DNA of 64,000 nt from Scenedesmus sp. PABB004 (taxonomy: Eukaryota), in NCBI GenBank assembly GCA_014905635.1, contig CM026548.1, forward strand, positions 1,302,001-1,366,000. Reading direction: 5' to 3'. Positions 583-59,479 of this stretch are shown here, one piece after another. Each line of letters starts with the position of its first letter. Within the stretch, counting starts at the first letter, position 1. The notes beneath the pieces are model-generated. The model was not told the DNA's origin, did no database searches, and saw only the letters and a list, made by a program, of their open reading frames with translations. The translations under genes and the position numbers were made by a program.

Positions 583-623
<41 letters not shown>

Positions 624-1308: not shown

Positions 1309-1350
1309 CGCAGGCGGTCCGCAGCCGACATACCGGGCTGCGCTGGCTTG

Positions 1351-1735: not shown

Positions 1736-1744
1736 CGCGCCGCC

Positions 1745-3978: not shown

Positions 3979-4381
3979 GCAACGCCCCTCTGCTGCTGCG
4001 CTGGCCGCCGCTGCCGCTCCCGCCCCCGCACCGCCGCCGCGCACGGCTTGTTGCTGCTCCGGCGCGCGAGGCAGGCGGGCGGGCGGGCGCGGGGCCCGCG
4101 GTTCACGCAGCGCCCGGTGGCGTCGCGCACAGCCTCCGCCCGGCCGCCCGTGGGCCTCCCCTGCCACATACGCACACGACCTCCAGGCCCGGACGGCAGC
4201 CGCAGCACGCAGCCGCGCGAGCGCACCGCCGAGCCCGCCGCTGCTGCTGTGCCGCTCGCCGCGATCGAACGCACATCGCCCCGCGGCGCCCGTGTGGGAC
4301 CCGCGACGCCACCGACCCTCACAGCCAGCCGCCGCGCCGACCCAGCGCCCTCAGGCGCCGTGGCAGCGCCGGCAGCAGCGC
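3979..4381 (+). repeat. ~400-bp direct repeat, 3' flank of LRR cassette copy 1; directly upstream of ATG16
   Basis: Colinear similarity to 1351-1735, seen directly in the sequence. Confidence 0.9.
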
Positions 4382-4457
4382 GCTGCTGCCAGCTGCGCCT
4401 CGCCCGCGGCAGCGCCGCCCGGCCAGCCGGCAGCGCCTTGGGTGAGCGCCTGCTGAC

Positions 4458-7400
4458 ATGATGGCGGTGGAGTGCCCGCAGGAGCTCCAGGCGGACGTGT
4501 GGCGCCAGGTGGCCGCGCTGCGGGCGGCGCAGACAGCGCCGTACGAAACGCTCGTCGCCGACTACATGGCCTGCCTGCAGCGCAACAGGGAGCTGGAGGT
4601 GCGAGCCCGGGGCGCGCGCGGCCGCCTCACGGCCCAGCGGGCGGCCGCGCCCGCGGCGCGCCCGCGCGGCGCCCGTGCGGCGCGCGCCTGGCAGCTGACG
4701 CGCGAGCTGCTGCCGGCCGGGCGGCCGGCCGGCCGGCGTGCCGCCAGGTGCGGGTCGGCGTGCTCGACAAGGAGGTGGCCGAGCTGCGCGACGAGGCCGG
4801 CTCGCTGCAGCACCGCCTCGCGGCGTTTGACGAGGCCGCGGTGCGCGACTTTGCGGCAAAGGTGCGCCCGCCGCTGCGCCCGCCCGCGCCCGCTGCTGGC
4901 GCTGCTGGTGCCGCTGCCGCTGCCGCGGCGGCCGTCGCTGCCCGGGCGAGCCCCGTCCCTCTGTGCGCCGCCCGCCGCCGCCGCGCCAGGCCGAGAGCTA
5001 CCGGGCAGACCTGGCGCGTGCCAACAGCGAGCTCACCAGCCTGCTGCGCGACAAGTCCAAGGCGCGCTCGCCCGGCCAGCGCCCCGCCGCGCGCGCCGGC
5101 TGGGCGCGCCGCGTGCGCCGCCGGCCACACAAGCGCGCGCCCGCGCCCGCGCCGCCGCCGCCAGGCGTACGAGGAGCTGCTGGCCCTGCAGCGCACCGTG
5201 GCCGCGCTCAGCGCGTCGCAGGCCGAGGCCGCCGAGGCCGCGGAGCTGGCCGAGGGCGAGATCGGCGGGCTGAAGGCCCGCCTCGCCGAGCTGAGCCAGG
5301 AGCTCGACGCCGAGCGCCAGGCGCGCCAGCTGGCGGCGGCCGAGGCTGAGGCGCGGTGCGCCGCGGCGGCCCGGCGCGCGCGCGGGGCGGCTCCCGCCGC
5401 GCGCGCGGCGGCCGCGCGGCGCGGCGCGCTGACGCCGCCGCCGCCTCTGCCGCCGCCGCCGCGCCCGCGCCCGCAGCGTGGCGGCCAAGGTCGCGGCCGA
5501 GGCCGAGTCGGAGCGGCTGCGCGCCGACAACCTGCAGATGGAGGGGCAGCTGCGGCAGATGGTGGCCAAGGAGGTGCGGCGGGCCGCCGCTCGCGCGGCG
5601 CGGCGGAGCGCGGGGCGCGCGCCGGGCGGCCGCGGGGCGCGGCCACGCGCCCGGCCGCGCCGCCGCCGCTGCGTTGGGTGCTCGCAGGCGGAGCGGCTGG
5701 AGCAGATCAGTCGCATGCATGAGGAGCTGATGGTCAACACCAAGCGGCAGCAGGTGGGCGGTGGTGGCGGCGGCGGCAGCAGCCCACGGCGCGCGGCCGT
5801 GGCCACGCGGCGCCGCGGCCGACACCGGCCCGCGCGCCGCGCGCCGCAGACTGAGGCGTCCGCGGCGTCGCAGCTGATGGGCCTGCTGACACGCCGCCGC
5901 GGCAGCGCCACCAGCAGCAGCAGCGCCGCGGCGTCCGCCGCGCCCAGCCCGGGCGGCGGCGCGTCGGCGCCGGCGAGCCGCCGCGGCAGCGCGGCCGACG
6001 CGGCCGGCAGCGCCGCGGCGGCGGCGGCCGCGGCGGAGGAGCACGAGCATGCGCAGGAGATGTGGTCGAGCCTCAAGCAGCGCATGGGCCTGCCCGAGCT
6101 GCCGGTGGGCCCGATCAAGGAACGGGAGCTGCCACAGCAGCCGGCCAAGGCCGTGCAGGTCTGCGCAGCGCTTCGCCCGGCGGCGGCACGGCGCCCGCGC
6201 CGCCGCGCGCGCGCGGGCCGCAGCCCGACGGGCCGGCCTGCGCCGCACCACCCGCGCGCCGCCCCGCGCCCCGCGCAGGCGCACGCGGGCGGCGTGTGCA
6301 GCCTGGCCTTCCAGCCGCACGGCCAGCTCGTCGCGAGCTGCGGCATGGACAAGACGGTGCAGAGCTGGTCGCTCACGCACGCGGCGCACGTCAGCACCTA
6401 CCAGGCGCGGCGAGCGGCGCGGCGTCGCGTCGGCGCGCCCCGCCCCGCCCGGCCGCGAAGGCGCGGGGCCCACCCAGGCTCCCCGCCCGCGCCTGGCCGC
6501 GCCGCGCAGGGCATGCAGGGGAGCGTGAACGACGTGGCCTTCAACGCCGACGGCCGGCGGCTGCTGGGCGCGGGCAGCGACAAGCGCTTGCTCGTGTGGA
6601 ACACGCACGGCGGCCAGGCGCGCGCGGCGGCCGAGGCGGGGCGCGCGCGCGCCCGGGCCGGGGGCTCGCCGCGACCCCCGCGCGCGCCGCGCCGCCGCGG
6701 CCGCAGGTCGTGCACACGCTGACGGGGCACGCCAACGCCGTGAGCTGCGTCGCGGCGTCGCCGCTGGACGAGGGCTTGGCCGTGTCGGCGGGCGAGGACC
6801 GCTGCCTCAAGGCGCGCCGCAGGGTTCAGGCCGCGCGGCGCAGGGTTTAGCCCGCGCGTGCCGCGCCAAGCCACGCCACGCCACGAGCACGCCGGGCGCC
6901 GCGGCGCCGCGCTCGACCGTCTGACGCCGCCGCCGCCGCCGCAGGTGTGGGACCTCGTGCGCGGCTACGCGAGCCGCAGCATCCCCTGCACCAAGATGCC
7001 GACCGCGCTCACGCTCAGCGCCGACGGCAGCACCATCATCACAGGTGGGGCGAGCGCGGCGCCTGCGCTCAGCGCGCGGTGCCCGCGCGCTGACGGCCGC
7101 GCCGCGCCCGCCCCACGCACGCAACCCGCGGCCAGGGCACCTCGACGGCACGCTGTGCCTCTGGGACCTGCGGCAGAGCCGCGCGGGCAGCCAGCCGCTG
7201 GCCGAGGTGCGGCGGCGGCAGCGGCGCTGCGCCGCTCGTGCCGCCGAGCGGGACAGCTGCCGAGGCGCGGCCGGCTCCGCCGCCGCCGCCGCCGCCGCCG
7301 CTGCTGCGCAGGTGCGCGACCACGCGCAGGCGGTGCTGTGCGTCACGCCCACGCCAAACGCGGACTGGCTGCTGACCGCGTCGAAGGACAACCAGCTGCG

Positions 7401-7915
7401 GCTGTGGGACTTCCGCCAGCTCGGCACCGTCCAGGCGCGTCGCCGCGCTCCCGCTCGCTCGCTCGCTGCCGCCCCGGGCGCGCCGCGCCGCGTCTGGCCG
7501 CCGCTTGCGCCGCCGGCGCGCGGCGGCGCTGCGACCCCTGCCGCGGCGGCGGCGGCGCTGCAGGTGCTCAAGGCGCCGCACTTCAGCATCGGCCACATCG
7601 GCAGCATGGGGCGCAGCAAGTGCCACGCAGAAATGAGCGCCGACGGGCGCTGGGTCGCGGCGGGCGCGGCGGACGGCCAGGTGCGCGCGCGGCGCGCGTC
7701 GCGCGGCGCGAGGTCGCGGGGCCCCGTGGCGAGCGCGCGCCGCCCGGCCGCAGGTGTTTGTGTGGGAGCTGCGTGGCGCGCCCGGCGCGGCGGCGGGCGC
7801 GCGCGCGCTGCGGCACCACAAGGACGCGGCGGTCGCGGCGGGCTGGAGCGCCGACTGCACGGAGCTCGTGACCGCCGACAAGGCCGGCGGCATCGCCTTC
7901 TGGCGCCTGCAGTGA
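4458..7915 (+). CDS. ATG16: Autophagy protein ATG16 (coiled coil plus C-terminal WD40 repeats), multi-exon
   Basis: N-terminal helix (WRQVAALRAAQTAPYETLVADY), long coiled coil, then WD40 repeats (AHAGGVCSLAF...ASCGMDKTVQSW; LTGHANAVSCV...SAGEDRCLK|VWD; GHLDGTLCLWDLR; LLTASKDNQLRLWD; MSADGRWVAAGAADGQ|VFVWE). Stop TGA at 7913-7915. Confidence 0.8.
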
Positions 7916-8352
7916 CGCGCGCGCCGCGCTCACCGCTGGTAACACCGGCCTGGGCCCGGCAGGCGCCGAGCGCCGCTCGAGGCACCAGCCCAGACCCGCG
8001 GCGGCACCGACTCCTCGTTCGCCGAGAGCGCAGCCGCCCGTTGAGCTGCCGCGACTGCCACCGAGCCCTTTCGCCGAGTGCGTGCATCTTGTGCAGCTCG
8101 CACACAGTGCTGCGGCAACCGCGACCAGCTCGCCACGCCCGCTCGCCCGCGCGCGCCGAGCAGCAGCAGCGGTGCCGCCCGCCGCTCGCCGCCGCCGCAG
8201 CCGGCCCGCCGCCGCAGCCGCCCCGCCGATCCCCGCCGGCAGCATCGCGCGAGCGGCGCCCGATTGCAGCCCGCTCGCCGCCGCCGCCGCGCCGCGCCGC
8301 TGCTGCTGCTGCGGGCGCCGCTGGCTCAACAACGCCGCGCCGCGCCGCCGCG

Positions 8353-11860
<3,508 letters not shown>

Positions 11861-12136
11861 GGCGGCCAGCTGCGCAGGGCGCAGGCGGGCGCGCTGCGGC
11901 CTTGCCTGGTGGTCTCGCGGCCGGTCAAAGTGACGGGTCAATGCCGCCGGGCAGCATTATGCCCGTTCCGCCCCCGCACGCCCGGCCCCGCGATAAATCG
12001 AAAGCAGCAGCGTCCCGTCGCCCCCACCCGCTGGTGTCCGCCCTCTGCCGAGCGACCCGCCTCAGCGCCTTGAGCATTTTCGCGCCGCCGCTGTCGCGAC
12101 ACCGAGCCCGCTGCGCGGTCAAGCGTCCCCTCCACA

Positions 12137-13996
12137 ATGGTGCGTCACCTACTGCTCCTCTTCCTCGCGGCCGCGGCCGCTGCAAGTGCCTCCGCCGCCT
12201 GGACGAGCCTGCAACAGGACTGCGCCGCCGTCGCGCCCGGCGCGGCCTTTGGCGCCGCCGCGCCCGACCTGTGAGCCGCCCCGCGGCTGTACCTGCGCGC
12301 CTTTGGCCCGCCGCGCTGCCCGCCTCGCCGCTGCGCGCGCCGGCGGCGCCGCGCGCCGCGCCGCGCCGCCGGCGCTGCTCCGCGCGCGCCGCGGCACTCA
12401 CCCACCCGCGTGCCGCCCCCCCCCATCTCGCAGGAAAACGGCCATCACCGTGACGACCGCCGACGGCGGCGCCGTGGCCGCGCTCTGCCCCGGCGTGGCG
12501 TACACCGTGCGCGTCAAGTTCCCCGAGCGCCGCAACTTCATCGTCGCCGCCACCGCGGGCGCCTTTTCCGGCGGCGTCGCCACGACGGGGACCTGGTGCA
12601 GCGCCTGTTCTTTTGCCGTCAGTGGGGTGGGGGGCGCCGGCGCCCTCTCTGCCCGCTGGGCGCCCCGCTGACCGCCCCGCTGACCGCCCTGCTGACCGCC
12701 CCGTTGGCCGACCCCGCGCGCTCGCAGCGCCAACCGCTTCATCAGCGCCGTGCCCGCCAGCACCACGGCCGCCACGCTCAGCCTCCCGTGCGGCGCGGCC
12801 GGCACCGTCGACCTGGCCGCGGCCAGCGTGCTATTCAACAAGACGACGTCGGCCGCGTTCAAGAAGGCGCAGCTGCTCGGCCTGCCCGTCGCGCCGCTCG
12901 CCGCCTGCCCGCAGTCCAACTGCCCCGGCGCCGGTGCGCGCGGCGCCGCGCCCCGCGCCGCGCTCCGCCGCTGCGGGCTGCCGCCGCCGCGCGGCCCCGC
13001 CCGCCCCCCGCGCCCGCCCCTCACGCGCGCGCCCCTCGCGCGTGCGCAGGCCTGCGCATCACCACGGGCGTCGCCGCCACGCCCGCCGCCGCGCCCGCCG
13101 CCGCGCCCGCCGACGCGCTGGGCGTGCGCCTGCCCGCGATCCCGGGGCTCAAGCTGCCCGAGGTGCGGCTCAACCTCACCAAGACCCCGTTCAAGGTGCC
13201 CTCGTTCAAGGTCAACCTCACCAAGGTCGCCCTGCCCACCAAGGTCGTGCTCGACCTCAACGTCCCCCAGCTCGAGAGCATGAAGGCCCTGCTGACCGAG
13301 TCGCTGTCGAGCGTCGACGCCGCGGCGGGCCTGCCCGACCTCACTCCCCTCGCGCAGCCCTTTACCGCGCTGCAGAGCCTCGCCGCGAGCATGGGCGTCG
13401 CGGCGCCGATCAACCTCACCGCGGGGCTCGCGTCCGCGCCCGGCGCGGCCCTCGCAGCGGCGGCGGCGACGGTGCAGGGCGTGAGCGCCAAGCTGCTGCG
13501 CAGCGCCAACGTGACCGTCGCGACCAACGGCACCGTGCTGGGCCTGCCCGACAGCCCCGACGAGCTCGTCGCCTTCATGCGCGGCATCGCCGACGAGCTG
13601 CGCGCCAAGACCGCGGGCCTCTTTGGCGCGGGCGCGGGCGCCGACGCCGCCGACGCGCCCGCGGGCGACGCGTCCGCGCGCCGCCTGCTCGCGGCCGACC
13701 CCGTGGCGAGCTACAACGCGCGCAAGATCGTGTCGTTCACGCAGCTCGCGCAGAGCGACTTTTGGGCGGTCATGTACACCGGGTTCAAGACCTCGCGCGC
13801 GGCGATGGCGCTCATGATCGCCGCGCTCAAGGCGCCGGTCAACGGCGTCGTCACGCTCGACAACGTGTCGCTGCTCGACTTTACCTCCAACGTCGCCTCG
13901 CTCGGCGCGGAGCTGAGCGACCTGATGAGCCGCATCACCAAGACCACGTCCGACGCGATCAACCCGCTCAACCTCAAGCCCACGACGACCGGGTGA
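12137..13996 (+). CDS. Secreted protein with Cys-containing Reeler-like N-terminal domain and unknown C-terminal region (4 exons)
   Basis: Signal peptide [48 protein letters not shown]...C|ANRF; RRLL putative processing motif; long final exon with strong codon bias ending KPTTTG*. Confidence 0.6.
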
Positions 13997-14629
13997 CTCA
14001 CCCGGTCATCACCCGGGGTGATGACGGGCTGGCGGGGACCGTGAGAGGGGGGGGGGGCATCTGTCGAGAGGGGCGTGTGCGGCAGGTGGCTCTGTTCGCG
14101 CGTGCGCTGGGCCATCTCTTGCATGCACGCGGCGATGACGGCGCGCGTGCGGCGGGCGCCGATACCTTGGCGGCGCCGATACCTTACCTTGGTCGCTTGA
14201 GCCCGCCCGCGGCGGCGGCACCGCTGAAGAACGGAGCGGCCGCCGCCGCGGCAGCGCGGCGCGGGCCCAATCACAACTCTGGCGCCGACGCTCCGCGAGT
14301 GAGCGCGCGCGGCCCAACTCACTCTCGCGGCGGTTCAGTCGCGCGCGCGCAGTGTGGCATCGGTGTGCAAGCGTGGCATCCCCAGTGCAACTGGTGGTGC
14401 CAGCCTGCTGGGGCACGCGGCCGACCGCTGCCCACCACACCGCGCCGCCGCAAACAGCTCGCCGAACCCGCCGCTGCTGCTGCACTGCTGCCGCGCCGCG
14501 CCGCAGCCGGCGCCGCCCTGCCTCCTCCGGACCCGCAAGTGTGTCACGCGGTCGCGTCCAGCTCTGCGCCGCGCGCCGACGCCGCGGGGAGGCGGGCGGG
14601 AAGGAGCAGGCCCGCGCACCAAAGAAAGG

Positions 14630-17600: not shown

Positions 17601-17640
17601 CGAGGCCGCGAGCGTTACCTTGAAGACCCCGGGCTGCTGA
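14630..17640 (+). CDS. Secreted calcineurin-like metallophosphoesterase (PAP/ACP5-like) + Pro/Ser linker + galactose-binding-like beta-sandwich + FN3 domain
   Basis: Signal peptide; all five metal-binding motifs (GDFG, G|DNNY, GNHD, LLHHAPFSS, FSGHDH); (GP/SP/AP)n linker; LGYG...YFRTSF...LRVLADNGADVWVNG; C-terminal VRLSWAPP...YRV...VTGLASCTEYTFSVVA. Confidence 0.8.
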
Positions 17641-17990: not shown

Positions 17991-20217
17991 TCACACCGCG
18001 CCGGCCTCGCCGCCGCCGCCCACGCCGCCGCCGCCGCCCGGCTGCTGCGCCGCGCCCGCCGCGTCCGGCTCGCCCCCGCCGCCGGCGCCGCCCTCGAGCG
18101 CCCGCTCGCCCGCGTCCGCCGGCAGCGCCGCGCCGCGCGCGTCCTCGCCGCCCCCGGTTCCGCCGCCGCCGCCGCCGCCGCCGCGGGCGCGGCCGCACGG
18201 CCCCGCGCCGCCGCGCGGCGGGCGCAGGCGCGGGCCGCTGCTGAGGAACGCGGCGCTGAGGCGCGGGCCCCAGCCGCACGTCGCGTTGGCCAGGGCGTCC
18301 ATGTAGTCAAAGAAGGCCCAGTCCTTGACGTTGCCCGCGCCGCTGCCGCGCGTGCGCTTGGCGCCAAACTCGGCCCGCGACTTGAGCACATAGTGGTGCA
18401 GCACCAGCTGCGCGCGCGCGGGGCGGCGGCGGCGGCGGCGGCGTGGGCGCGGCGGGGCGCGCATGGTGGGCGTGGGTGCGGCGGCGTGGGCGTGGTGGCT
18501 GCGTGCGCGTCTGGGCGCGAGCGTGCGGGCGCGATCGGCGGCGGCGGCGCGCGCCTTGTGCCACTTGGCGGTCGGCGTCTTGGGTCCGGTGAAGGGCACG
18601 CCGTCGACGTCCACCACGACGCGCCCCCTGCGCGGCAGCACCTCGTGCGGCGTGCCGCCCAGGCCCAGCACGGCGCCGGTGTTGGCGATCATCTGAATGC
18701 AGCCGTGGGCGGGTGGGCGGGGCGGGGCAGGGAGCGTCGGCGGGGCGAGGCGGGGCGGCGCGCGGCACCTCTCGCGCGCGCGTGTGCGCGTCACCGCGCC
18801 GCCGGCCGCCGCGCCGCGCACCTTGACGTGCGTGCTCTCCCAGTGGCCGCGCGGCACGCACGCGGTGTAGCTGGCGAGGGGGCCGCCCGGCGGGCGCTCG
18901 GCGAGGCCGCCGCTGCCAAAGAGCACCCAGTTGACGCCCAGCGCCGCGTAGTACTCGTAGCGGGAGAGGAAGGCGCCCAGGCTCGCCCGCGAGCGCCGCC
19001 CCCGCGCGAGGCCCTCGCCGCCCGGCGCGCCGTCGGCGCCGCCGCCGTCGGCGCGCGGCGCGTCCCACGGCTGCTGCTGCCGCGCCTGCCCGCCCTGCTG
19101 CTGCTGCTCCCCCGCCCCGCCCCCCTGCCCCGCCGCCGGCTGCTCCCCCGGCTGCCACCGCGCGTCGCCCTCGCCGCCGCCTGGCTGGCCTCCTTCCTCA
19201 GCGCCAGGCGGCGGGAAGACCAGAAACTCGTCCACATCGATGAATGCGATCCACCGGTGCAGCCGGAAGTGGGAGAGCAGGCAGCCGGTGTAGGCGGCGT
19301 ACTGGTTGGTGTCGTGGAAGTCGGGCCGCCGCCGCGGGCGGCCTGCGCGGCGCGGCGCGGCGCGGCGCGGCGCGGTCGGCGCGCGCTGCGACGGCGGCCG
19401 CGCGCGCACATTCTGTTGCTCGCCAGCCCCCGCCCCGCGCCGCCGTTGCGCCCCGCGCTGCCACTACCACTGCCGCCGCCGCCGCGTCGGCGCGTGGTGC
19501 GTGCCGCGTCGGCGCCGCACCCCTGAAGTAGTGGTAGTCCACGACGCCCTCCTCAATCAGGTCCCACAGCCCCAGCAGCGCGGGCGAGGTGGAGTTGTTG
19601 TCGTAGATGTAAAACTTGCTCACGCCCAGCCACCTGGCGGGGCGGCGAGGCGTGCGGCGTGCGGCGGCAGCGCGCGCGCGTACGGGTGCGTCCATACACG
19701 CGCGGCCGTGCGCCGCCTGCCCTGCCCTGCCCTGCAGTGCCCACCGCGGCGCGGCCCGGCGCGGCGCGGCGCGGCGCGGCGCGCGCCTGTGATACTCTAT
19801 CCAGTAGCGCAGGTCGCGCCCCTGGTCCTTGACGACCGCGCACACGGCGACGTAGCCCTGCGGCCACTTGGTCGCGAGCGCGTGGAGCAGGTCGGACTCG
19901 GTCGGCGCCGCGCCTGCGCCGGGGCCCGCGGGGCCGCCGGGCCCGGCGCCGGCGGAGCCGTTGGCGGCGGCCTTGGCGGAGATGAGGGCGTGGAGGTCCT
20001 GGTGGTGGTGGCGCTGCAGCGCCGCGAGCATCGCGGCCTGCTGCTCAACGAGGTGCGCCGGCAGGAACGCGTGCAGCGCGCCGGCGACGCCGCCGCCCGC
20101 GGCGGCCGCGCCGTGCGCCGGCGCGGCGCCCGCGCGCAGCGGCGCGAGCGCGGCCGCCGCCGCGGCGACGAGCAGCGCCGCCGCCGCCGCCGCCGCCGCC
20201 CGGCGCCGCGGCCGCAT
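17991..20217 (-). CDS. Glycosyltransferase family 92 (DUF23) protein
   Basis: N-terminal anchor; YVAVCAVVKDQGRDLRYWIEYHR|WLGVSKFYIYDNNS; QYAAYTGCL...WIAFIDVDEFLV; LGVNWVLFGSGG; LHHYVLKSRAEF. Confidence 0.85.
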
Positions 20218-23406: not shown

Positions 23407-23727
23407 GCGGCGAGGCCCTCGGTGACGGCGGCGAGCAGCGGCGCCGCGCCGGTGACGGCGGCGGCCGGCGCGCGGTTGTGGTCGGGCGATGGAGCAACCT
23501 GTCGGCGTGAGCGTGGCTCGCTGCTCGCCTGCGCGATCGCGCGTTCGGCACTCGGCGGACCACGTGTTCTTTGTCAGGCCCGGGTGCGCAGCCGTCGCCC
23601 GGGCCCGTGGCCGCCAGACAGCGCCGATCGGATCAGTGCGCGCTCATCCCGCCGCCCGCCAACGTCGCCCGGCGGCCAGGGCCGCAGCAGCAGCGCCCTC
23701 GCGGCCCGGACCGCGACGCCAGGCAGG

Positions 23728-26659: not shown

Positions 26660-27042
26660 CTGTGCCGGGCGGGCGGGCGGGCGCGGCGGGCGCGGGCTGG
26701 CAGGCAGGGTCCGGGCGGGGGCAGGCGGGCGGGTGACCGTCAGGGGGCGCCGGCGCTCGGCGGCGCGCGCGCTCAGCACGGACGCGCGCGGGGAGCGGGC
26801 GGCGGCGGCGCGCACGGCAGCGGGGGGTGTTTCTAACGTTCCAAATGGCGCCGGCCTGTGCCGAGGCGCGCGTGTGCATGCGGGGGGTGGGCAAACGGGT
26901 GTGTGCGCAGGATTTGCGGTGATCAAAGCGCCGCGTCGTCGCTTTGCGCGGGCGGCTCGCAGCCGCCTGCTGCGACGCGCCCCGAGGCTGCTGCGCTGAC
27001 TGGCGGCAGGCGCGGGCGCGCTGGCCGACCGATCGGGCGCTG

Positions 27043-27112
27043 GGACGGGGGGCGGCTGCAATCACCTTCGACACACAGGACGGGGGGCGGCTGCAATCAC
27101 CTTCGACACACA
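27043..27112. repeat. Perfect 35-bp tandem duplication between two convergent genes
   Basis: ggacggggggcggctgcaatcaccttcgacacaca present twice. Confidence 0.9.
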
Positions 27113-27515
27113 CACCCCAGCGCGTCGCTGCGCGCACGCGCGTGCGTTCGTGGGCGCGAGGGGGCAAGTGAAATCAGGCGGCCCGCGCACGCGCGCGGGG
27201 CACACCCCAGCGCCCCGTCGCACGATGGATGCCCCAGAGCCCAGCGCCGCCCGCCGCCGCCAGCACCGGCCCGACCGATCGCCGCTTGACGACGCGCGCG
27301 CCGCCAAACAGAAAGAGACAGACGTCCAAATCGCCGAGACACAACATCACCACCAAGCCCACCACCCACCACGCCCGCGCACCAGCGGCAAGCCACAGCC
27401 TGGTTGTTTCGTGCAGCCCCATTCGTCCCATCTCTCCCCCCCCCCCACCACCACCGCGCCCTCCCGGTTACGTTTTTCGTTCGCCGTGCCCGCGCCCGGG
27501 CGCGCGCGCGCCGCG

Positions 27516-30500
27516 TCAGCGCGGCGGCGGCGTCGCGACGCAGCCTGTGGTCGCGTTGTAGGGCTTTGTGATTGCCATCGGCTCCTCGATCACTGCCGAG
27601 CCCGCGTCGAGCGTGGCCTGCAGGATCTTCTCCCGCTTGTCCATGTCGCCGGCGCGGTTGGCCACGTCGAGGTTGCGCAGCTCGGTCGCGCCCTGGGCGC
27701 ACATGTTGTACGCCGTGTCGCCGAGGCTGCTGCAGAGGTTGATGGTGGGCTGGGCGGGGTAATAGTAGATCCACCAGCTGCGCGCGTGGGTGGGTGAGTG
27801 TGGGCGTGGGTGTGTGGGTGGTGTGGGTGGATGGGTGGGCGGTGCGGCGGCGTGGGCGCTCGCGCGCGCAGGCGGGCGCACGCGGGCGGGCGCACGCGCG
27901 CGCGGGCGGCGCGGCAGCGCGGCGGCGGCGGCGCTGCGGCGCTCACAAGCACATCTCCTCCTGCGTGGAGTAGCCCCAGGGCGTGACCGTGGTGCGGCTG
28001 GTCGAGTCAAACGTGCACACTAGGCTCAGCTCCTCGCCGGGGTGCAGCACCGCGCCGTCGTCTGGGATGTCAATCCAGGTCTGGAACTCTGCGGGGCGGC
28101 AGCGGGGAGGGAGAGAGGGAGAAGGGAAGGGCGGGGGTCGGAGGAGGGGCGGGGGTCAGAGGAGGGGCCACCAGCAGCGCAGGCGGGCGCGGGCGCAGGC
28201 ACGGGCGCGGGCGTCCCCTCTGCGGCCAGCCGCCACGCCCGCCGCGCCCGCCGCGGCGCACGCACTGTAGTCAAAGTGGCGCAGCGTCGCGATCGGCGGC
28301 TGCTCCACGCCGCCGCGCACGCGCCGCGTCGTCATGCTGCGCCCGAGGCCGTGCATGTGCAGCGCCTGGGCAATCATCGTCACTTTCTGGTCAAACCTGG
28401 TCAAAGCGACGGGGGGACAGGACCGTCGGGGCGGGGCGGCGGGGCGGCGGCGCGCCGTCGGCAGGGGGCGCGGGAGCGCGAGCGCGCGAGGGAGCGGAAC
28501 GGGGCGGCCCGCGCGCCGCCGGCAGCGTGGCGTGCGACGGCTGCGTGCGCATGCGCACGCGCGTGCGCGGCCGGCGCACCGGCCGGTGCAGCTGGAGGGG
28601 CAGGTCGCGCGCGCGGCGGAGAACGCGGGCTGCCCCGGCTGAATGTCCAGGAGGAACTGGGAGATGGTCAGGATGCCTGGTGCGGTCACACACACAGCCA
28701 GGGGCGGGGGCGGCGGCGGCGGCGGCAGGGGCGTGGTCAGCGCGGCGGCGGCACGGGCGCGCCGTGCGTCGCGGTCGCGCGGGGCGCGGGCGGCGGCGAG
28801 CGTGCGCGGCGGGGCGGCTGGCTCACCGATCTCGTGCGTCTCGGGGCGCGCCTCCTCAAAGTACACGCGCAGACCTGGCAGCCGGCGGCGGCGACGGCGG
28901 CGGCGCTCAGCGAGCCGTGCCGCGCGGCGCGGCGCGGCGCGGAGCAGAACCGCGCGGGGGCCGCACCCGTGCCGGGGTCGGACTCGCCCGTCTTGAACTG
29001 CGGGTTGTTGTAGTGGACCTCGATGGCAAAGTACTTGGTGCCGTCCTTGCCAAAGGGCAGCCCCGTGCCCGCCGGGAAGGCGTACGTCGGCGCGGTGGGC
29101 GAGGGCCCGATCTGGCGGCGGCGCGGCGCGGCGCGGCGGCGGCGGCGCGGCGCGGTCGTTCGCACGCGTGCGGGGCGCGGGCGGGGGCGGGGCGCGGGCG
29201 CGGGCGCGGGCGCGCTGCCTGGGCTCTGCGCACGCCGCGCACGCACCATGTAGAAGGTGTCGCAGACCTGGCGGTCGTCCTTCTGGTTGTACGGCCCCGG
29301 CCCGCGCGTGCAGAGCAGGTCCTCGACCGCGGGCTGCGAGCTGCTCGGCAGGCAGGCGTAGACGAGCGAGTGGTGCACCAGGCCCAGGTTGCCGTAGATG
29401 GTCGTGTAACTGGTGATGTGGTACCGCCTGGGGAGGGCGCAGCGGGGCGCAGCGGGGCGCAGGCAGGGTTTACAGGCTCAGCGCCCGGAGCGGCGGCGCG
29501 TGGCGTGCGAGTTTGCGGCCGGCGAGCGCGCAGCGCAGCGCGGCGCGGCACAGCACGCAGCACGCAGCGCGCGGCGCGCACTTGTCGCTGGGCAGCTCGA
29601 CGTAGCAGGTCATGTAGGTCGTGTCGGTGTCGCTGGGGATGTCCGGGACCTTGCAGAGGATCTCAGTCACGTACTTGCCGTCGCCGAGGCTCTTGACCCG
29701 GCGCGGCAGCGCGCTCGGGACGTCGTCGCACGCCGCGGGCGCCGCGGCCGCGGACGCGGGCCCCGCGCCGCCGCCGCCGCCGCCGCCCGACGGCGGCGCG
29801 TCGTTGGCCTTCACGCCCGCGTTGTACCCCGCCTCGAGCTGCACGCCGAGCTGCTCCGAGATGGCGCTCAGCGGCGGCGGCGCCGCCGCCGCCGCCGCCG
29901 CGGCCGCCGCGGGCTCATCATCGGCCGCCGCGGCGCCGCGCGTGGCTGTGGTGGCGTTGAGGACGTTGAGCATCTGGATGTAGAAGCTGCCGCGGGCGTT
30001 GTTGTGGTATGCGATCCAGTCGCCCAGGGCGGGGCCGTTGGCCCAGATGACAAAGTTTCCCATGCCGCGGCGGATCTCGTGGTCAGAGTCAAAGTCGCAG
30101 GTCTTGATGCGCCGCGAGAGCACCGCCGTGAACGCCGCGCCGCGCAGCGCCGCCGAGTGCAGGACCCAGTCCTGGCTCGCGTCGGGTGAGGGCATGAAGA
30201 AGCCCGCCGCGCTCGCGTCGGTCACGACCCACTTGCTGCCCTTGCGGTGCAGCACCGCCATGTCGGCGCCTGCGCGGCGGCGCGCGCTGCTGGTCGGCCG
30301 GGCGCCGCCACCGCGGCGTGCCGCTCCCGCCCGCCCCGCGCTGCTGCCGCTGTCACGCCGCCCCGGCTGTTGCCGCCGCTGGCGTGCGCCGCTGGTGCGC
30401 GCCGCTGGCCGGCCAGGCGCCGCGCCGCTCCCGTCCTTGAAGCGCTGCTGCCGCTGTCACGCCGCCGCCGCCGCCGCCGCCGCTGCTGCACCGCTGGCCG

Positions 30501-31143
30501 GCCGGCCGGGCGCCGCCCCGCCGCGGCCGCGCACCAGTCATGCCGCCCATGTCTGACAGCCCGACCGCAAACCAGCCGCGCGCCGCGGCGTCGGGCTCGC
30601 GGTTGCTGAGCCGCAGCGTGATGTAGTCGCCGTTGTCCTGCCACTGCACCGCGGCCTTGCCCTTCTTGAGCACCTGCGGGCGTGGAGGCGCGGCGCGGCG
30701 CGTCGGAGGGCAGCGGCGGGCAGCGGCGGCGGGCAGCGGCGCCTGGTGCCGCCGGGCCGGGTCGGTCCCTCGCGGCTTGCCCGGCCATGGGCCGCGCCCA
30801 GCGGCACCCGGAGCGGTCGCGCGGGGGCGGCACGGGCCCGTGGCGCCCGGGGCGGGCGGCGCTGCGCCAGCGGTCGGGTACCGACGTTCTCCCCGCACGG
30901 CCCCCCGTTCGGCCGCCCGCCCGGGCCGGAGGCGGCGACGCAGCCCCGAGATCCCAAACCGAGGGCGTGCGGGCCCCGACGCCGCACCTGGCAGCCGTCG
31001 AAGGCCTTGCCCTTGAAGCGGGCCGCGCTGAGCGCGCCGCAGTTCATGGCTGCCGCCACGGGCGCCAGCAGGGCCAGCAGCAGCACCGCGGCCGCAGCCT
31101 GGCCGCGCCGCAGCCCCCGCGGAAGGGGCGTCGAGGCTGGCAT
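27516..31143 (-). CDS. DOMON + copper type II ascorbate-dependent monooxygenase (MOXD1/DBH-like)
   Basis: Signal peptide; DOMON (GWFAVGLSDMGGMTG|ADMAV); Cu ligands VHHSL, EVHYNNP, LHMHGLG and QEEMC; HFDY..FQ; C-terminal WIYYYP. Confidence 0.88.
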
Positions 31144-31449
31144 CGCCGCCGAGTCCAGGCGCGGCGTGGGGCGCGGGGCAGCCGGGGCCGTGTCTCCGCG
31201 GCGCGCTGAGCCTGGGTGCAACGAGGCGCGCGCGCTGGTGCGGCGGCGGCAGCGGCGGCGGCGGGGCGTGGGGCACGGGGCTTTACCTGTGGCACCGCCC
31301 AGGATGCCGCCGCCTGCCAGCCAGACGGCCGAGCCATTCGTCCGTCGCCACCGCATCCGCCGCGGTCGCCGCCGCTGCCGCCGCGCTGACGGCGGCAGCG
31401 GCCCTCACAGGCCAGCTGCCGCCGCCTCGCAGCCGTGGCGCGCTGCGCT

Positions 31450-32068
31450 GCGGCGCACGGCAGCGTCGCGGTAGCTGAAGGCCAAGGTCACGTCCGGCTA
31501 CCGGACGCGGCCGTGCGCCGCGCCGCCACGCCCGCCACGCGCCCAGCACGCCCGCCGCGCGCGGCTCGGCCGCCCACACCTGGCCCTGCGGCAGTCGGTC
31601 CTCATGCGCGCCCCGTGCGCTGGAGGCTCTGGGGCGCGGACGAGGACCGACTGCAGCTTCGGCGCGCTGGGCGCCCAGGTGACTGGCGCGCTGCGCTGGC
31701 CGCGGCGCGCCTCGCGGCCACCTCGGCGGCGGCGGCGGCGGCGGCGGCGTCGGTGGCAGCCGTCTTGATGTGCCACACCTCCGGCCTGTGCGCCTGAGGC
31801 CTGGAACACCAACACGGCTACCGCCGACACCAGCGACGCGGCACACGGCCGCGCCGCGGTAGCTGGAGAAGGCGCCTCAAAGGTTGGCGCCGCCCATCAG
31901 CTACCGCAACGCGGCCGTGCGCCACGGCGCCACGCCCGCCGCGCACCCGGCACGCCCGCCGCGCGCGGCTCGGCCGCCGGCCTGGCCGGCCTGCGCGGCG
32001 CGCGTGAGGACCGACTGCCGCTTCGGCGCGCAGGGCGCCCGCGTGCCCTGCCTGCTGCGCCTGACTGG
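31450..32068. repeat. Degenerate ~230-bp direct repeat pair (~31450-31686 and ~31838-32068) upstream of the monooxygenase
   Basis: Shared colinear blocks: cgcggtagctg, acgcggccgtgcgcc, gcacgcccgccgcgcgcggctcggccgcc, gaggaccgactgc.gcttcggcgcgc, tgactgg. Confidence 0.75.
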
Positions 32069-32131
32069 ACCGGGGCTGCGACGCCCTGCCACCCGCCCCG
32101 CACGCCGCCGCCACACCCAGACAGCACAGAG

Positions 32132-35100
32132 CTAGTCGTCCGCCTCCGCCGCGTCGCCGCCCCGGTCGGCGCCGCGCCCCGCCGGCAGCGCCGGCGACCA
32201 GCAGCGCCCGCCCGCCGCCGCCGCGACGGAGCCGAGGCTGTTGCGCCGCGAGTAGGGGCAGGCCTGCCCCGACAAGCTGCTGACGTCCTTGAAGCTGGCC
32301 AGCAGCATGCCCGGCGGCAGCAGCGCCTCAAAGCGCTCGAGCGCGGCGTCGAGCCGGTCCGCCTGCTTCGACTCGAGCGTCACCAGCAGCCGCGCACCGT
32401 CGCGCTGCCCGCTCACCTGCGCGCGCGCACGAGCGCGGCGCGTAAGCGCGGCGCGTCAGCCCGGCGGCTGAGCGGCGGCCGGGCGGCGCGCGCGGGCTGT
32501 GGGGGGCGGCGCGCGGCGGCGCAGCGGCGCGCACCGGGTAGCTCCCGATCGCCAGCTCGCCGCCCCACTCAGCGGCGAGCGTGTCCAGCAGTGGCGCGAC
32601 GGTCGCCTCGTCCTCAGCGGCCAGCCGCGCCACCCTGCGCGCGGCGCGACGGCGGCGCGCGGCGCTCGCGCGGGGGCTGCGCGCGGGCGGCCCGGCCGGC
32701 CCGGCCCTCGGGGCGCCCACGCGCGGGGCGCGCCGCAGCGCTGCCCGGCGGCTGCTGCCGCACCGGTTGCTGAAAGGCGCGAGCTGCACCGCGGCCTGCA
32801 GCTCCGCCGCGACGGCCGCCCACTTCTGGCGCAGCAGGTGCGGGACGCCTGCGGCACGAGCGCGGCGGCCACCTCGGCCGCCGGCGCGCGCGCGTGCGGC
32901 GCGGGCGGGGGCGCGGCGGGCCGCCCCCCGCACGGCGCGGCGGGCCGCCCCCCGTGCTGCGTGGCGCGCGCCTGGCAGCACAAACACGTTGCGCACGGCG
33001 ACGAGCGGGAAGGGCCCCGGCGCGCCGCCGTCGCCGGGCAGGGGTATGAGGCGCGTCGTGTCGTCGCCGGGCGCGTCGGCCATCTTGAGGTGCGCCGGCG
33101 TGGCGTCGTCCCCAAAGTAGCGCAGCAGGCCCTCCTCCAGGTCGGGGTGCCTAAAAGAGGGAGGGGGCGGTGTAGAGGGGCGGGGTTTAAGGGCGGGGCG
33201 CGTGTTTGCTCGTCCGTCCGCGCGTCGCTGCCGCGGGCAGCTGTGCCCAGCGCGCGTGCGCCCGCCGCCACGCCGCGCGGCGGGGCCGCGGCGCAGCGGA
33301 AGCGGGGCGCACCGCACGACGTCGACGCCAAACGCCGCGGCGATGCCCTCCATGGTCACGTCGTCGAGCGTCGGCCCGACGCCGCCGCTCGTCACGACCG
33401 CGGCGCAGGCGGCCGAGAGCGTCGCGACCTCGCTCGCGATCGCGGCGACGTCGTCGGGCACGAACGACACCTGGCGTTGGCCGGGGCGGGGGTGGACGGG
33501 GCGGGGGATGGACGGACACCGGGCGCGTTGGGCGCGGGGGGGGGGGGGGGTGTTGGGCGCGCGTTCGGCCGCCGCCGCGCCGCCCTGCCCGCGCGGCCGC
33601 CGACCTTGCGCACGGTCCAGCCGATCTCGTGCAGCCGGCGGCAGAGGAAGGGCGTGTTCTCGTCCTCCACCTGCGCCACGGGGCGGCGCGGCGGCGGGGC
33701 GGCGGGCGCTCGCCGCGCTCGAGCGCTCCGCCCAGGCAAGGTCCCGGCCCGTGAACCCCAAACCTTGAACCCTGAACCCTGACTCCCCGCCACCTAAACC
33801 CTGAGCCCTAAAGCCCTGGGCCCACCTTGCCGCTGAGCATCTCGTCCCCGACCACCACGATGCCGGCGACCCAGCTCATGCTGCTCGCCACGCCCGCGGC
33901 GCCGCCCGACGGCAGGCTGTCGCTGCGCCGCTGCGCGGACGCGGCGCGGCGGACGCGGCGGCGGACGCGGCGGCGTCGGCGGCGCGCCCGTCGGCGCGGC
34001 CGCGCCGGAGGGAGGCAAGACAGCAGGCCGAAGCGGCAGCGCGCGCGCGCGCCTGCTTGGTCGCGCGGCCCGCGCGCTCGAGCCGGCCGTCCGCCAGAAT
34101 GTAGGCGGGCGCGTAGCTGCCGTCGCTGCGCTTCAGCGCGCTGCGGTGCGAGGCGCGGGCCGTGCGCCCGCGGCAGGCGCGGGCCGCGTCGGCGCGGCGC
34201 GCCCGCGGCGCGCTGGCCGTCAAGCCGTGCGCCGGCCGCGCGTGCCGCGCCGCGCGGCGCGCCTGTTTGGCAGCGTGTTGTTCACGCCGCCGAGGCTCGT
34301 GTAGCCGTCGTCGTACAGGCCGCAGTAGGGCACGCCCGCGGCGCGCAGGAAGCCCCACACGTCTGGCGCGCGGCGCGGCGGCGGGGCCGGTGCGCAGTGG
34401 GTGCATGGGCGGCGCCGCGCCGTGTGCCGCCGGGCGCGGGCGCCGCCGCGCGCTCCCTCCCTGCCCCCCTGCGTCCCTGTGTCCCCCGGGGCCCCCTCTG
34501 CCCCGCCCTCTGTCCCCACCGGCGTAGCTCCAGTCGAGTATGGGGTTGATGCGCATGAAGGGCGGCCAGCCCGCGCTCGAGGGGCAAAAGTACTCCTGGC
34601 CGTCCGCGTTGGGGTCGCCCCTGCGCCCGCGGCGGCGGCGCCGGCGCGCGACGGCGGCGCGTGGCGCGGCGCGGCGTGCGGCGTCGCCGACCTCGCACAC
34701 GCACACGCGCACGCACTCGCACAGCACACACAGCACACACAGCACACACAAGACACACACACACAGCATGCACAGCGCGCGCCTGCGCGTGCCGAGCACG
34801 ATCGCCGCCGCGTGGGCCGCTGACAGGTACTCCTCAAGCCCAGCCTTGAAGTCCGGGTGCGTGAGGAACTGCGTGCGCAGCCCGTAGCTGCGCGCCGGCG
34901 GCGGCGGCGGCGGCGGCGGCAGTGGTGGGATCGGGGGCGAGCGCGGCGCGCCGCCGGCGGCGGCGGCGAGCGCGGCGGCGCTGGCGTGCGGCGGCCAGCC
35001 TCACGTCGCGTCGGTCTGGCGCACAAAGTCTATGACCTCGGGGAAGTCGTCCGCCCGCTCAAAGTAAAACGCGGCCAGGCCGCCCAGCCCTGCGCGGACA

Positions 35101-35718
35101 AGGGGTGGGGTCGGCGTGCGGCGGGCGGCACACGCGGCGCGCGGGGCTCGCGCGCGGCGCGCGCGCTCGCCGTCGGGCGGCGGCCGGCCGTCGCGCTGCT
35201 CCTGCTCCCGCTCCTGCTGCGGCTGCGGCGCGCCCTGCTCAAACGTCACGCGCGGCGCCTGCTTCGGCTGCGCCTGCAGCTCGGGCTGGCCCAGCAGCCG
35301 GCTCCCGCTGCCGCTGCTCGCGCGCGGCGGCGGGCTGGCCGCGAGCGGCGAGAGGTCCAGGTCGGGCCGCAGCGCCACGCGCATGAGGTGCAGCAGCACC
35401 GTGGAGTCCTTGCCGCCGTTGAAGCTCAGCGAGATGCTGCCGTGCCTGGCGGCGGTTGCGGCGGTTGCAGCGGCGGCAAGACAGCGCGCGCGCGGCCCAC
35501 GCGCGCCGCTGCAGCAGCGCCAGGCGAGGCCCTGGTGCGCTCCCTGACATCAGCGTGGCAGCCCAGTCCCGCCCGGCTGGGCGGGCGCCGACTGCGCACC
35601 GGTAGAGCTCCAGAGTGCGGTGCAGCATGTGCAGCGCCTTGTGCACCTTGCCGCGCAGCACCGGGTCGTCGATGCCGCGTATGCCGGCGGCCACCGCCTC
35701 CACGCTGACATACTTCAT
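32132..35718 (-). CDS. Bifunctional FAD synthetase (PAPS-reductase-like FMN adenylyltransferase + molybdopterin-binding/CinA-like domain), plant-type order
   Basis: [110 protein letters not shown]. Confidence 0.92.
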
Positions 35719-35792
35719 GCCAACGGGCAGCTGCCGCGCCCGCGCGGGGCCCGGCCTGGTCACGGCGCCGGCGGCAGCAGCGAAAGCAGCAG

Positions 35793-36172
35793 CGGCGCTG
35801 CCGCGGCGCCTGAGGGCGCTGGGCCGGCGCGCCGGCTGCCTGGGTGGGTCTGCGGTGTCGCAGGGCTCACACGGGGGCCACGGGGCGATGCGCTGGATCG
35901 CGGTGAGCGGCGCAGCAGCGGCGGGCTCGGCGGCGCGCTCCCGCGGCTGCGTGCTGCGGCTGCCGTCCGGGCCTGCAGGCGGTGTGTGTGTGCGTGTGGA
36001 GGGGAGGCCCACGGGCGGCCGGGTGGAGGCTGTGCGCCGCCGGGCGCCGCGTGAACCGCGGGCCCCGCGCCCGCCCGCCTGCCGCGCACGCCCGAGCAGC
36101 AGCAAGCCGAGCGCGGCGGCGGTGCGGCGGTGGGAGCGGCGGCGGCCAGCGCAGCGGCAGAGGGGCGTTGCA
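35793..36172 (-). repeat. ~400-bp direct repeat, 3' flank of LRR cassette copy 2; directly upstream of FAD synthetase
   Basis: Reverse complement matches 1351-1735 and 3979-4381. Confidence 0.9.
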
Positions 36173-38476: not shown

Positions 38477-38479
38477 GGC

Positions 38480-46525: not shown

Positions 46526-46581
<56 letters not shown>

Positions 46582-53147: not shown

Positions 53148-53235
<88 letters not shown>

Positions 53236-59478: not shown

Positions 59479-59479
59479 C

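Follow-up and report, generated by a model that had tools for sequence, protein, structure and literature searches.

The window analysed here (the whole stretch of 64,000 nucleotides) belongs to a very GC-rich green-alga genome (~80% GC DNA). Self-BLAST reveals three diverged copies of an LRR gene within 60 kb of it, one of the three being inverted. A non-coding stretch of ~390-400 nt, which we call R, lies immediately 5' of the LRR gene in all three copies, as the first-pass annotation had proposed when it named this sequence the immediate upstream region of the gene. R is present again downstream of the LRR gene in copies 1 and 2. The features discussed below are as follows.

1306..1308, plus strand: stop codon ending the upstream DUF829-like gene; unit 1 follows after 42 nt
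1337..1347, plus strand: copy of an R-internal 11-mer, situated in the 5' flank of unit 1; possible filler DNA
1351..1744, plus strand: 5'R1, non-coding sequence flanking LRR1 on its 5' side; homologous to 3'R1 as far as 1732
1745..3701, plus strand: LRR1, exons 1745-1784, 1922-2062 and 2215-3701; 555 aa; intact
3702..3978, plus strand: LRR1 3' spacer, probable 3'UTR; the final 33 nt (3946-3978) recur in front of 5'R3
3979..4381, plus strand: 3'R1, the second R copy, beginning at a TGCAAC motif
4371..4390, no strand: perfect palindrome of 20 nt centred on the end of 3'R1
4382..4457, plus strand: spacer of 76 nt from 3'R1 to the ATG16 ATG; first 18 nt common to copy 2
4458..4604, plus strand: exon 1 of the ATG16-like gene, followed by WD40 exons to about 7400
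35719..35792, minus strand: spacer of 74 nt from 3'R2 to the FAD synthase ATG
35793..36171, minus strand: 3'R2 (self-BLAST, nhmmer)
36458..38476, minus strand: LRR2, exons 38476-38437, 38302-38174 and 38010-36458; 573 aa; intact
38477..38868, minus strand: 5'R2 (self-BLAST, nhmmer)
59050..59479, plus strand: 5'R3, led by 33 nt (59050-59082) matching the end of the LRR 3' spacer
59480..61454, plus strand: LRR3, broken under the common three-exon model
61765..61852, plus strand: 3'R3, only the first 72-105 nt of R; next ATG at 62654

In the self-BLAST of the window, 1351-1732 matches 3979-4381 at 84.2% over 406 columns, and 35793-36161 matches 38496-38868 at 85.7%. Whole units are ~80-81% alike (1361-4399 with 38868-35764, 1351-4040 with 59082-61823, and 36113-38863 with 61823-59094). 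An nhmmer profile of R recovers five full copies and one partial copy (61766-61836), with no further match at E below 0.03 in the 64-kb window; no solo R was found in these 64 kb, which include roughly 20 other genes. A 23-nt motif of R has five occurrences in the window, where 100 shuffles predict 0.03. Neither R nor the conserved LRR exon 2 found a relative among the JGI metagenome contigs. All three cassettes are co-oriented with both neighbours, and the strands of the flanking genes thus uphold what had been noted at first pass. Copy 1 lies between a DUF829-like gene and ATG16 (both plus strand), copy 2 between a Kazal gene and the FAD synthase gene (both minus strand), and copy 3 between an LHC gene and a Kazal/trypsin gene (both plus strand).

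The two GT-AG introns are retained in all three LRR copies. LRR1 contains one stop only, at its terminus, while LRR3 has indels of -1 and +10 nt and four premature stops; the public gene model P0006 merges LRR3 with both neighbours. Exon 3 of LRR1 differs from that of LRR2 by nine net indels, every one of them in frame; non-coding sequence, including R, has indels of any length. The dN/dS of the LRR genes is 1.0-1.4, with dS of 0.15-0.17. LRR1 and LRR2 remain in frame and are diversifying, and LRR3 is decaying. The LRR gene is fast-evolving and lineage-restricted. The AF2 model of LRR1 (13-sequence alignment; pLDDT 87.1, pTM 0.86) forms a beta/alpha solenoid of ~20 strand-helix units, and every listed Foldseek match is an LRR protein; the plant F-box LRR receptors TIR1, D3 and MAX2 give the highest TM-scores (0.50-0.57). 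The product is accordingly modelled as an LRR solenoid protein, with repeated strand/helix units in a curved solenoid. Pfam support for the LRR assignment is weak: LRR_14 matches LRR2 with E=1.1e-8, and its 34.7 bits lie below the 40-bit cut-off. Pfam reports LRR only on the unit, with no gag/pol remnants. An F-box protein was also considered and rejected, since exon 2 alone, in the correct frame, gave no match to an N-terminal F-box at E up to 10.

The plus-strand exons upstream of unit 1 resemble DUF829 (a weak Pfam match, E=0.0013), and the stop codon at 1306-1308 is the sole stop in all forward frames between 736 and 1828. Downstream of unit 1, residues 6-49 encoded by ATG16 exon 1 align with residues 6-49 of a Tetradesmus obliquus protein with an ATG16 domain (57% identity, E=1e-16). 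The name ATG16 is taken from the domain list of this nearest homologue, and Pfam on the window's own exons returns WD40 only. Exon 1 of the FAD synthase gene leads into the SFNGGKD motif of exon 2; its Pfam matches are PAPS_reduct, MoCF_biosynth and FLAD1_M, and a PDB search gave a FAD synthase match with E=0.037. The start codons of both genes are consistent with their homologues.

The first-pass annotation had placed the end of each downstream repeat about 75 bp before the ATG of a housekeeping gene and just short of where the LRR ATG would be, and both observations stand. 3'R1 ends at 4381 and the ATG16 ATG occupies 4458-4460, with 76 nt between; 3'R2 ends at 35793 and the FAD synthase ATG occupies 35718-35716 on the minus strand, with 74 nt between. 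R is thus in sense directly upstream of both ATGs. Relative to the LRR ATGs (1745, 38476 on the minus strand, and 59480), the downstream repeats halt 12 nt short of the equivalent position in copy 1 and 19 nt short in copy 2. Copies 1 and 2 do not end at identical points, being offset by 10 nt on the 5' side and by 7 nt on the 3' side. Homology between these two copies continues ~18 and 29 nt beyond the end of R, to 4399 and 35764, although this match is weak (P=0.04); on that basis the distance from the shared unit to the ATG may be 58 nt for ATG16 and 45 nt for FAD synthase.

The R copies differ in how they are related and in which parts are kept. Seven sites and a 6-nt indel link 5'R1 with 3'R1, and three sites link 5'R2 with 3'R2; two sites link 3'R1 with 3'R2. 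Since the R copies group within units 1 and 2, either gene conversion inside the unit or repeats made afresh at each insertion are needed. The last 40 columns of R are the best kept, with identity of 0.88-0.93 in every class of pair, 5' and 3', and the first 80 columns are kept in the 3' copies only (0.89-0.90 vs 0.58-0.71). Private changes number 11 and 8 in 3' copies vs 14, 22 and 14 in 5' copies. Overall, R diverges approximately neutrally, at 84-90% identity vs a dS of 0.15-0.17.

In copy 1 the junctions resemble filler DNA. The 11-mer occurs six times in the window, counting both strands: four times in R copies, once at 1337, and once at an unrelated position. At the other junction, the final 10 nt of 3'R1 and the 10 nt that follow the break are reverse complements of each other, against a background of ~10 loci in the window with palindrome arms of 10 nt or more. 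These junction features were noticed post hoc, in DNA of low complexity and high GC content. The flanks of units 1 and 2 are unrelated to each other, and no clear target-site duplication of 4-6 bp is seen around the units, whose ends are fuzzy and whose flanks are CTG/CGC-rich.

Copy 3 repeats another segment, which combines 32 nt or more from the end of the LRR 3' spacer with ~72-105 nt of R; copies 1 and 2, by contrast, repeat ~385-400 nt of R. Scored by alignment, a longer stretch of 3' spacer than these 32 nt in the copy 3 repeat does not reach significance. A further occurrence of a rare 8-mer from the LRR 3' spacers lies at 59006, near 5'R3. Copy 3 is the only copy far from the next gene, with 801 nt from its 3'R to the next ATG, and it has lost most of its 3'R.

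From this geometry we think it somewhat probable that the units are DNA-level pieces, slightly larger than one period of a head-to-tail LRR repeat, and not a transposon with fixed ends. The source would have been a tandem array of the LRR gene, or a concatemer or circle derived from such an array. R would then be the entire spacer of the head-to-tail repeat, from the TGCAAC motif to just short of the next ATG, opening with 3'-end signals and closing with the LRR promoter and 5'UTR. TGCAAC may be the poly(A) signal of the LRR gene, a guess based on its similarity to UGUAAC. The pieces would have entered short spacers that separate co-oriented genes, probably when a break was repaired by end joining. 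Copy 2 may descend from the copy-1 form, because the two seem to have 18 nt of post-R sequence in common, and copy 3 would represent a different window of the same repeat period. Introns and flanks were copied and the window of terminal redundancy varies among copies, as in a DNA-level duplicate.

Several observations were counted for the array or concatemer origin: the repeat geometry, the differing ends, the retained introns, the absence of solo R, the three copies within 60 kb and the junction features of copy 1. Others were counted against it. Neither a tandem array nor a circle was seen, the window examined holding three copies, and the R copies group within units 1 and 2. Random breakpoints do not account for the near-coincidence of the copy 1 and copy 2 ends, unless copy 2 comes from copy 1 or selection filtered the ends. 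In addition, the junction features are post hoc, the post-R stretch reaches only P=0.04, and the extension in copy 3 is not significant.

It is very unlikely, in our estimate, that R-LRR-R is instead a discrete, promoter-preferring mobile element whose terminal repeats are remade at each move, in the manner of LTRs or Penelope-type pseudo-LTRs. Such an element would fit with the two R copies of units 1 and 2 being mutual closest relatives, with unit 1 and 2 ends that agree to 7-10 nt between unrelated flanks, and with the position of both intact units directly upstream of an ATG. However, the 12 nt from R to the LRR ATG leave no room for a primer-binding site, and by eye they contain no TGG-type site; there is no polypurine tract 5' of 3'R, where the preceding 30 nt are mixed G/C and not a purine run. 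The introns are retained, the ends are inexact, copy 3 repeats another segment, and inverted ends are lacking, the best arms being ~70-76% complementary, as expected for GC-rich DNA. R opens with the putative poly(A) motif, which would lie upstream of any promoter, the normal order of a spacer and not that of U3-R-U5, and solo R is absent from the 64 kb, as are relatives of R and exon 2 from the JGI metagenome contigs. An LTR retrotransposon, or a LARD/TRIM derivative, was rejected on its terminal repeats (unequal among copies), the lack of PBS, PPT and gag/pol, and the kept introns. A TIR DNA transposon or MITE was likewise rejected, the best inverted pairs being 70-86% complementary, not at the ends, and expected for 80% GC DNA. 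Less probable still, and indeed hardly credible, is that a solo R pre-existed before ATG16 and FAD synthase and that a circle of R plus LRR integrated there by homologous recombination of the Campbell type. Direct repeats with outer ends set by R, unrelated flanks and retained introns would all be accounted for, and the reverse reaction would account for loop-out; but no solo R stands among roughly 20 other window genes, the copy 3 repeat window differs, and homologous recombination would not be expected to leave palindromic and copied sequence at the junctions.

Fast-evolving LRR genes, such as plant NLR and receptor-like genes, occur in clusters of proximal or dispersed DNA-level duplicates. 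The present case is similar in that an intron-bearing LRR gene was copied with its flanks and clustered over tens of kb, with one copy inverted, and in that repeat-domain dN/dS is about 1 or more, indels are in frame and one copy is decaying. Unlike in those clusters, the units here are single, lie between unrelated housekeeping genes and leave 42-76 nt of spacer; each is slightly larger than one head-to-tail period, so that the promoter region is carried twice. LTRs and solo LTRs can donate promoters, and some retrotransposons seek promoters, e.g. Tf1 of fission yeast. The units share with these a terminal direct repeat in sense, with a putative promoter, ending just upstream of a host ATG, but they have no PBS, PPT or visible reverse transcriptase, keep their introns, and have inexact ends and a repeat window that varies among copies. 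In Penelope-like elements, pseudo-LTRs are partial tandem copies and introns can be retained. Terminal direct repeats of varying extent, from a partial second unit, are also seen here, although without a reverse transcriptase or GIY-YIG gene and with an ordinary-looking LRR gene as cargo. Free DNA such as T-DNA is reported to be inserted by polymerase-theta-mediated end joining with filler DNA (PMC9299229, PMC4912351, PMC2943611). The copy 1 junctions similarly have short copies of nearby sequence, inverted (the snap-back palindrome 4371-4390) and direct (the 11-mer at 1337), and the units lack inverted ends. The inserted DNA here is instead an endogenous gene, and the enzyme and pathway would be deduced from two low-complexity junctions.

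Whatever their origin, the downstream R copies may have consequences for the adjacent genes. We lean towards the view that ATG16 and FAD synthase are promoted from the second R. Transcription of both genes now probably begins within R or at its edge, because the second R leaves just 74-76 nt of other DNA before the ATGs; promoter donation is plausible since almost no native upstream DNA remains. At locus 1 the unit starts 42 nt after the DUF829-like stop, which leaves almost no native spacer to house a promoter: non-unit DNA from that stop to the ATG16 ATG amounts to only 42 + 76 nt. The conserved 3' end of R, the retention of its first 80 columns in the 3' copies only and the lack of excess private changes in 3' copies were counted for promoter use, as was the loss of most of 3'R only in the copy distant from the next gene. 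It is possible, though we doubt it, that the units arose in the same way and the downstream R is an inert by-product, its nearness to two ATGs being due to chance in a compact genome. ATG16 and FAD synthase would then use a core promoter in the 45-76 nt of unique DNA, or LRR read-through. The probability of two of three 3' ends falling within 76 nt of an ATG is ~0.18, R as a whole diverges about neutrally, and co-orientation has a P of only ~0.04 where most window neighbours are co-oriented on a rough strand map. Polycistronic transcripts are also known in green algae (PMC7896298). Against an inert R, 45-76 nt is very little for a promoter and 5'UTR, the 3' end is the best-kept part of R in 3' copies too, the copy distant from a gene start is the one without most of its 3'R, and the many AUGs in the LRR ORF would be expected to block leaky scanning to a downstream ORF.

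The first-pass annotation had suggested that the unit inserts at gene 5' ends, but two cases are opposed by one counter-case, copy 3. The P of ~0.18 for these positions is arithmetic from the coordinates, given short spacers (with the units removed, 118 nt, at least 356 nt and 1101 nt). The positions of the downstream R copies are not beyond chance, and targeted insertion is unsupported. Nor do inexact ends (10 and 7 nt) and the different segment in copy 3 suit a defined insertion element. A more speculative and rather improbable extension is that R acts as a portable "terminator plus promoter" spacer, so that R-LRR-R would fit between any two co-oriented genes. The first R would terminate the upstream transcript and drive the LRR gene; the second would terminate the LRR transcript and become the promoter of the downstream housekeeping gene.

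For now, the finding is chiefly one of well-defined anatomy: three local DNA-level duplicates with unequal terminal redundancy. The promoter reading predicts that the 5' ends of ATG16 and FAD synthase mRNAs lie inside R. If the second R does drive these genes, a gene duplicate, and not a transposon, would have replaced the promoters of two essential genes in nature and placed them under the control region of a fast-evolving LRR family, and the case would show how very tight spacers can tolerate new gene copies. If R also serves as a portable spacer, insertion would be harmless, ATG16 and FAD synthase would be coupled to LRR-family regulation, and a diversifying receptor-like family could spread through a compact genome without a transposase.

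The window holds three copies of a unit of ~2.8-3.1 kb, which are 80-81% alike in a self-comparison of the window. Each unit opens with R, the ~390-400 nt directly upstream of an LRR gene, and all findings on the units and on R come from these 64 kb. The units, the LRR1 gene and two neighbouring stop codons are located as follows.

Repeat units and associated features (window coordinates)
1306-1308, stop codon of the DUF829-like gene, the sole possible stop, upstream of unit 1
from 1351, plus strand, unit 1
1745-1784, 1922-2062 and 2215-3701, exons of LRR1 in unit 1 (555 aa, one terminal stop)
from 38868, minus strand, unit 2
58747-58749, stop codon of the LHC gene, upstream of unit 3
from ~59050, plus strand, unit 3

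The first-pass annotation had taken R for the immediate upstream region of the LRR gene, and R does stop 12 nt before an ATG in all three units (1745, 38476 and 59480). In units 1 and 2 a second copy of R follows the LRR gene. In the self-comparison the downstream copy of unit 1 (3'R1, 3979-4381) matches the upstream one (5'R1, 1351-1732) at 84.2%, and that of unit 2 (3'R2, 36161-35793) matches its partner (5'R2, 38868-38496) at 85.7%. These downstream copies had been described as breaking off near the start codon of a neighbouring gene, just short of the point equivalent to the LRR ATG. Both parts of that description are upheld: 3'R1 ends 76 nt from the ATG of the ATG16-like gene (4458) and 3'R2 ends 74 nt from that of the FAD synthase gene (35718), falling short of the LRR-ATG-equivalent position by 12 and 19 nt, respectively. 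Also as described, each of the three units is co-oriented with both of its neighbours. The anatomy of the unit is confirmed and sharpened.

A profile search of the window for R recovered nothing beyond five full copies and a partial one (61766-61836), and a 23-nt core of R occurs five times where 0.03 occurrences are expected. The 74-76 nt flanks are dissimilar to one another, and neither resembles LRR exon 1 and intron 1 (P=0.15-0.98); therefore the break in R homology is real, and the repeat does not pass gradually into a diverged start of the LRR gene. R is non-coding on the evidence of its indel pattern and the absence of a coding signature. It contains no sense ATGs, which is uninformative given that only ~2 are expected per 500 nt, and a G-quadruplex motif is present in 3'R1 only and is not conserved among the copies. 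The R 23-mer had no matches in JGI metagenome contigs. The sole match there to a 22-mer of exon 2, contig L001 (65.7% GC), was rejected as chance, as it is otherwise dissimilar to the window.

The LRR2 gene is intact under the exon model of LRR1 and encodes 573 aa, 71.6% identical to LRR1. The large LRR1 exon is predicted with high confidence (pLDDT 87.1) to fold into ~20 strand-helix units; the structural matches listed for this model are all LRR solenoids, with plant F-box LRR receptors at the top TM-scores, and a Pfam search of exon 2 gave no match at all, to the F-box motif or otherwise. All nine net indels between LRR1 and LRR2 in exon 3 are in frame, in contrast to R, the introns and the 3' spacer, where indels are of any length. 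The dN/dS is 1.0-1.4 and substitutions are even across codon positions. Both genes keep their reading frames, and their repeat domain either diversifies or drifts; conservation is far higher, at 93-98%, in exons 1 and 2 and in the bases preceding the ATG. The LRR family is narrow in protein searches. LRR1 exon 3 matched no protein of similar length at E of 0.001 or better, its sole match among longer proteins was the window's own fused model P0006, and an exhaustive search returned 62 of 1.84 billion representatives at E of 0.001 or better, the next best after the window's own protein being 38% identical.

LRR3, under the common exon model, has indels of -1 and +10 nt and four premature stops. 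By eye, the +10-nt frameshift (60555-60575) resembles a tandem copy of the adjoining ~10-nt stretch, and a slippage-type lesion would fit this better than an assembly error. In the public gene model P0006 (1279 aa, 57481-63998), the broken LRR3 is fused with the LHC gene on one side and the Kazal/trypsin gene on the other; the model bridges the LRR3 lesions and translates the final ~85 nt of R in frame. It has the look of an ab initio artefact, such as 80% GC DNA with few stops would produce.

The G+C content is ~80% across the whole window. The genes in it are of eukaryotic type, with GT-AG introns; one encodes a chlorophyll a/b-binding protein, and a WD40 gene has its closest homologues in Tetradesmus and Scenedesmus. 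A chlorophycean green alga is therefore the most likely source. The start codons of both neighbours hold up: exon 1 of ATG16 (4458-4604) matches residues 6-49 of a Tetradesmus ATG16-domain protein at the same offset, and exon 1 of the FAD synthase gene runs on into the SFNGGKD motif. The latter gene (32331-35718, minus strand) begins with a PAPS-reductase-like part, with MoCF-binding and FLAD1 middle-domain matches downstream. Human FLAD1 has the opposite domain order, and this region may represent a different architecture or two genes. Kazal-domain genes adjoin two of the three units, one upstream of unit 2 (39154-40586, minus strand) and one downstream of unit 3 (62654-63998, plus strand), the latter with a signal-peptide-like first exon and a trypsin domain; self-BLAST of the window showed no DNA similarity between them. 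Self-BLAST also detected numerous short GC-rich low-complexity stretches on both strands, 70-88% alike (family D1; e.g. 53140-53370, 46480-46650, 43250-43440 and 18000-18250). A simple repeat lies at 9240-9348, and Rfam gave no matches anywhere in the window.

Short contigs of a freshwater metagenome run (X1), compared with positions 1-9200, match LRR1, LRR2 and the start of ATG16 at 95-99% identity; therefore the run includes this alga, or one closely related to it, at low depth. The near-identical contigs are only 130-231 nt long and none bridges a junction. Joints in X1 were rejected as junction evidence, every one listed having a side of <30 nt and so being noise, and a variant contig (3335-3552) was rejected as a further paralogue, as it agrees with copy 2 at the positions compared by eye.

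The first-pass annotation had further proposed a mobile cassette that targets gene starts. This is not supported, and we consider any targeting of gene starts improbable. R is not the fixed end of an element. Between units 1 and 2, the ends match no more closely than to 10 nt at the 5' side and 7 nt at the 3' side. In unit 3, R is preceded by a further 33 bases (59050-59082) matching the end of the LRR 3' spacer, and the downstream repeat ends after ~72-105 nt of R; therefore the window that it repeats, within the same period, differs from that of units 1 and 2. An 8-mer at 59006 is elsewhere confined to the three LRR 3' spacers, and extension of unit 3 beyond 32 nt is unproven (P=0.05-0.39 against real window segments). 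A resemblance between the 5' flank of unit 1 and the LRR 3' spacer was significant against shuffles but was dropped, not being so against real window segments (P=0.12). Neither the units nor R have inverted ends, the units have no polypurine tract and no space for a primer-binding site, and both introns are retained. Unequal windows, inexact ends, missing element ends and kept introns are as expected if each copy were a segment just exceeding a single period of a head-to-tail LRR repeat, of which R would simply be the spacer.

Such pieces may have been joined with filler DNA. In unit 1 the final 10 nt of R are followed directly, across the break, by their exact reverse complement, so that a 20-nt perfect palindrome is centred on the 3'R1 break; there are ~10 palindromes of that size in the window, and the chance that one has its centre no more than 2 nt from a given point is ~0.001, a post hoc estimate. 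At the 5' flank of unit 1, an 11-mer lies 14 nt ahead of R, with 3 nt separating the two, and occurs otherwise in four R copies and one place elsewhere. Inverted or direct copies of nearby sequence are described in PMC2943611, PMC4912351 and PMC9299229 as a mark of filler from end joining that is synthesis-dependent or uses polymerase theta. Units 1 and 2 seem to stay homologous for 18 and 29 nt beyond R (P=0.04), and given this shared stretch unit 2 would have descended from the unit-1 form. The R pair within a unit has derived states in common at seven sites and one indel (unit 1) or three sites (unit 2), against two sites for same-position copies of different units. This indicates gene conversion inside the unit, or repeats made anew at each event, and argues against simple copying of whole units.

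The annotation had also suggested that the trailing copy of R keeps the host gene expressed, and for ATG16 and FAD synthase we lean slightly towards 3'R serving as the promoter. Only 42 + 76 nt of non-unit DNA separate the DUF829-like stop from the ATG16 ATG. By the figures in PMC7896298, co-linear genes in two other green algae lie a median 3.3-3.4 kb apart, and polycistronic pairs 212-260 nt. All DNA upstream of -76 (ATG16) and -74 (FAD synthase) is unit DNA, and the unit without most of 3'R is the one whose downstream gene has 801 nt of upstream DNA of its own; however, the cases number only two, against one counter-case. In the 3' copies the end of R is conserved, and these copies decay no faster than the 5' ones, although R overall diverges at about the silent-site rate. 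Two of three unit ends within 76 nt of an ATG have P ~0.18 by our arithmetic (the spacers measure 118, at least 356 and 1101 nt), and co-orientation has P ~0.04 on a rough map in which most neighbours are co-oriented anyway.

R begins at TGCAAC, one base off UGUAAC, which PMC1868727 gives as the chief poly(A) signal in Scenedesmus. The first 80 columns of R are conserved at 0.89-0.90 in the 3' copies versus 0.58-0.71 in the 5' copies, and the last 40 columns at 0.88-0.93 in all copies; we infer that the start of R would carry 3'-end signals and its end a promoter or 5'UTR. TGCAA(C) occurs at 39 sites on both strands versus ~23 expected (among them 3978, 36172 on the minus strand, 61764 and 59081; also 14366/14386 and 49070 on the minus strand), often 170-390 nt past a coding end with non-coding DNA after it. 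TGTAA is nearly absent from the window (eight sites on both strands) and was found at none of the gene ends examined. TGCAA(C) may be this alga's variant of the UGUAA(C) signal.

The units resemble fast-evolving LRR gene clusters in being local duplicates at the DNA level. Promoter donation by LTRs operates in a similar manner, but the units do not test as LTR members. Penelope-like elements have pseudo-LTRs that are partial tandem copies, and these, together with end-joining insertion with filler DNA, are among the closest known systems. Replacement of the promoters of neighbouring genes by the second R is a good hypothesis.
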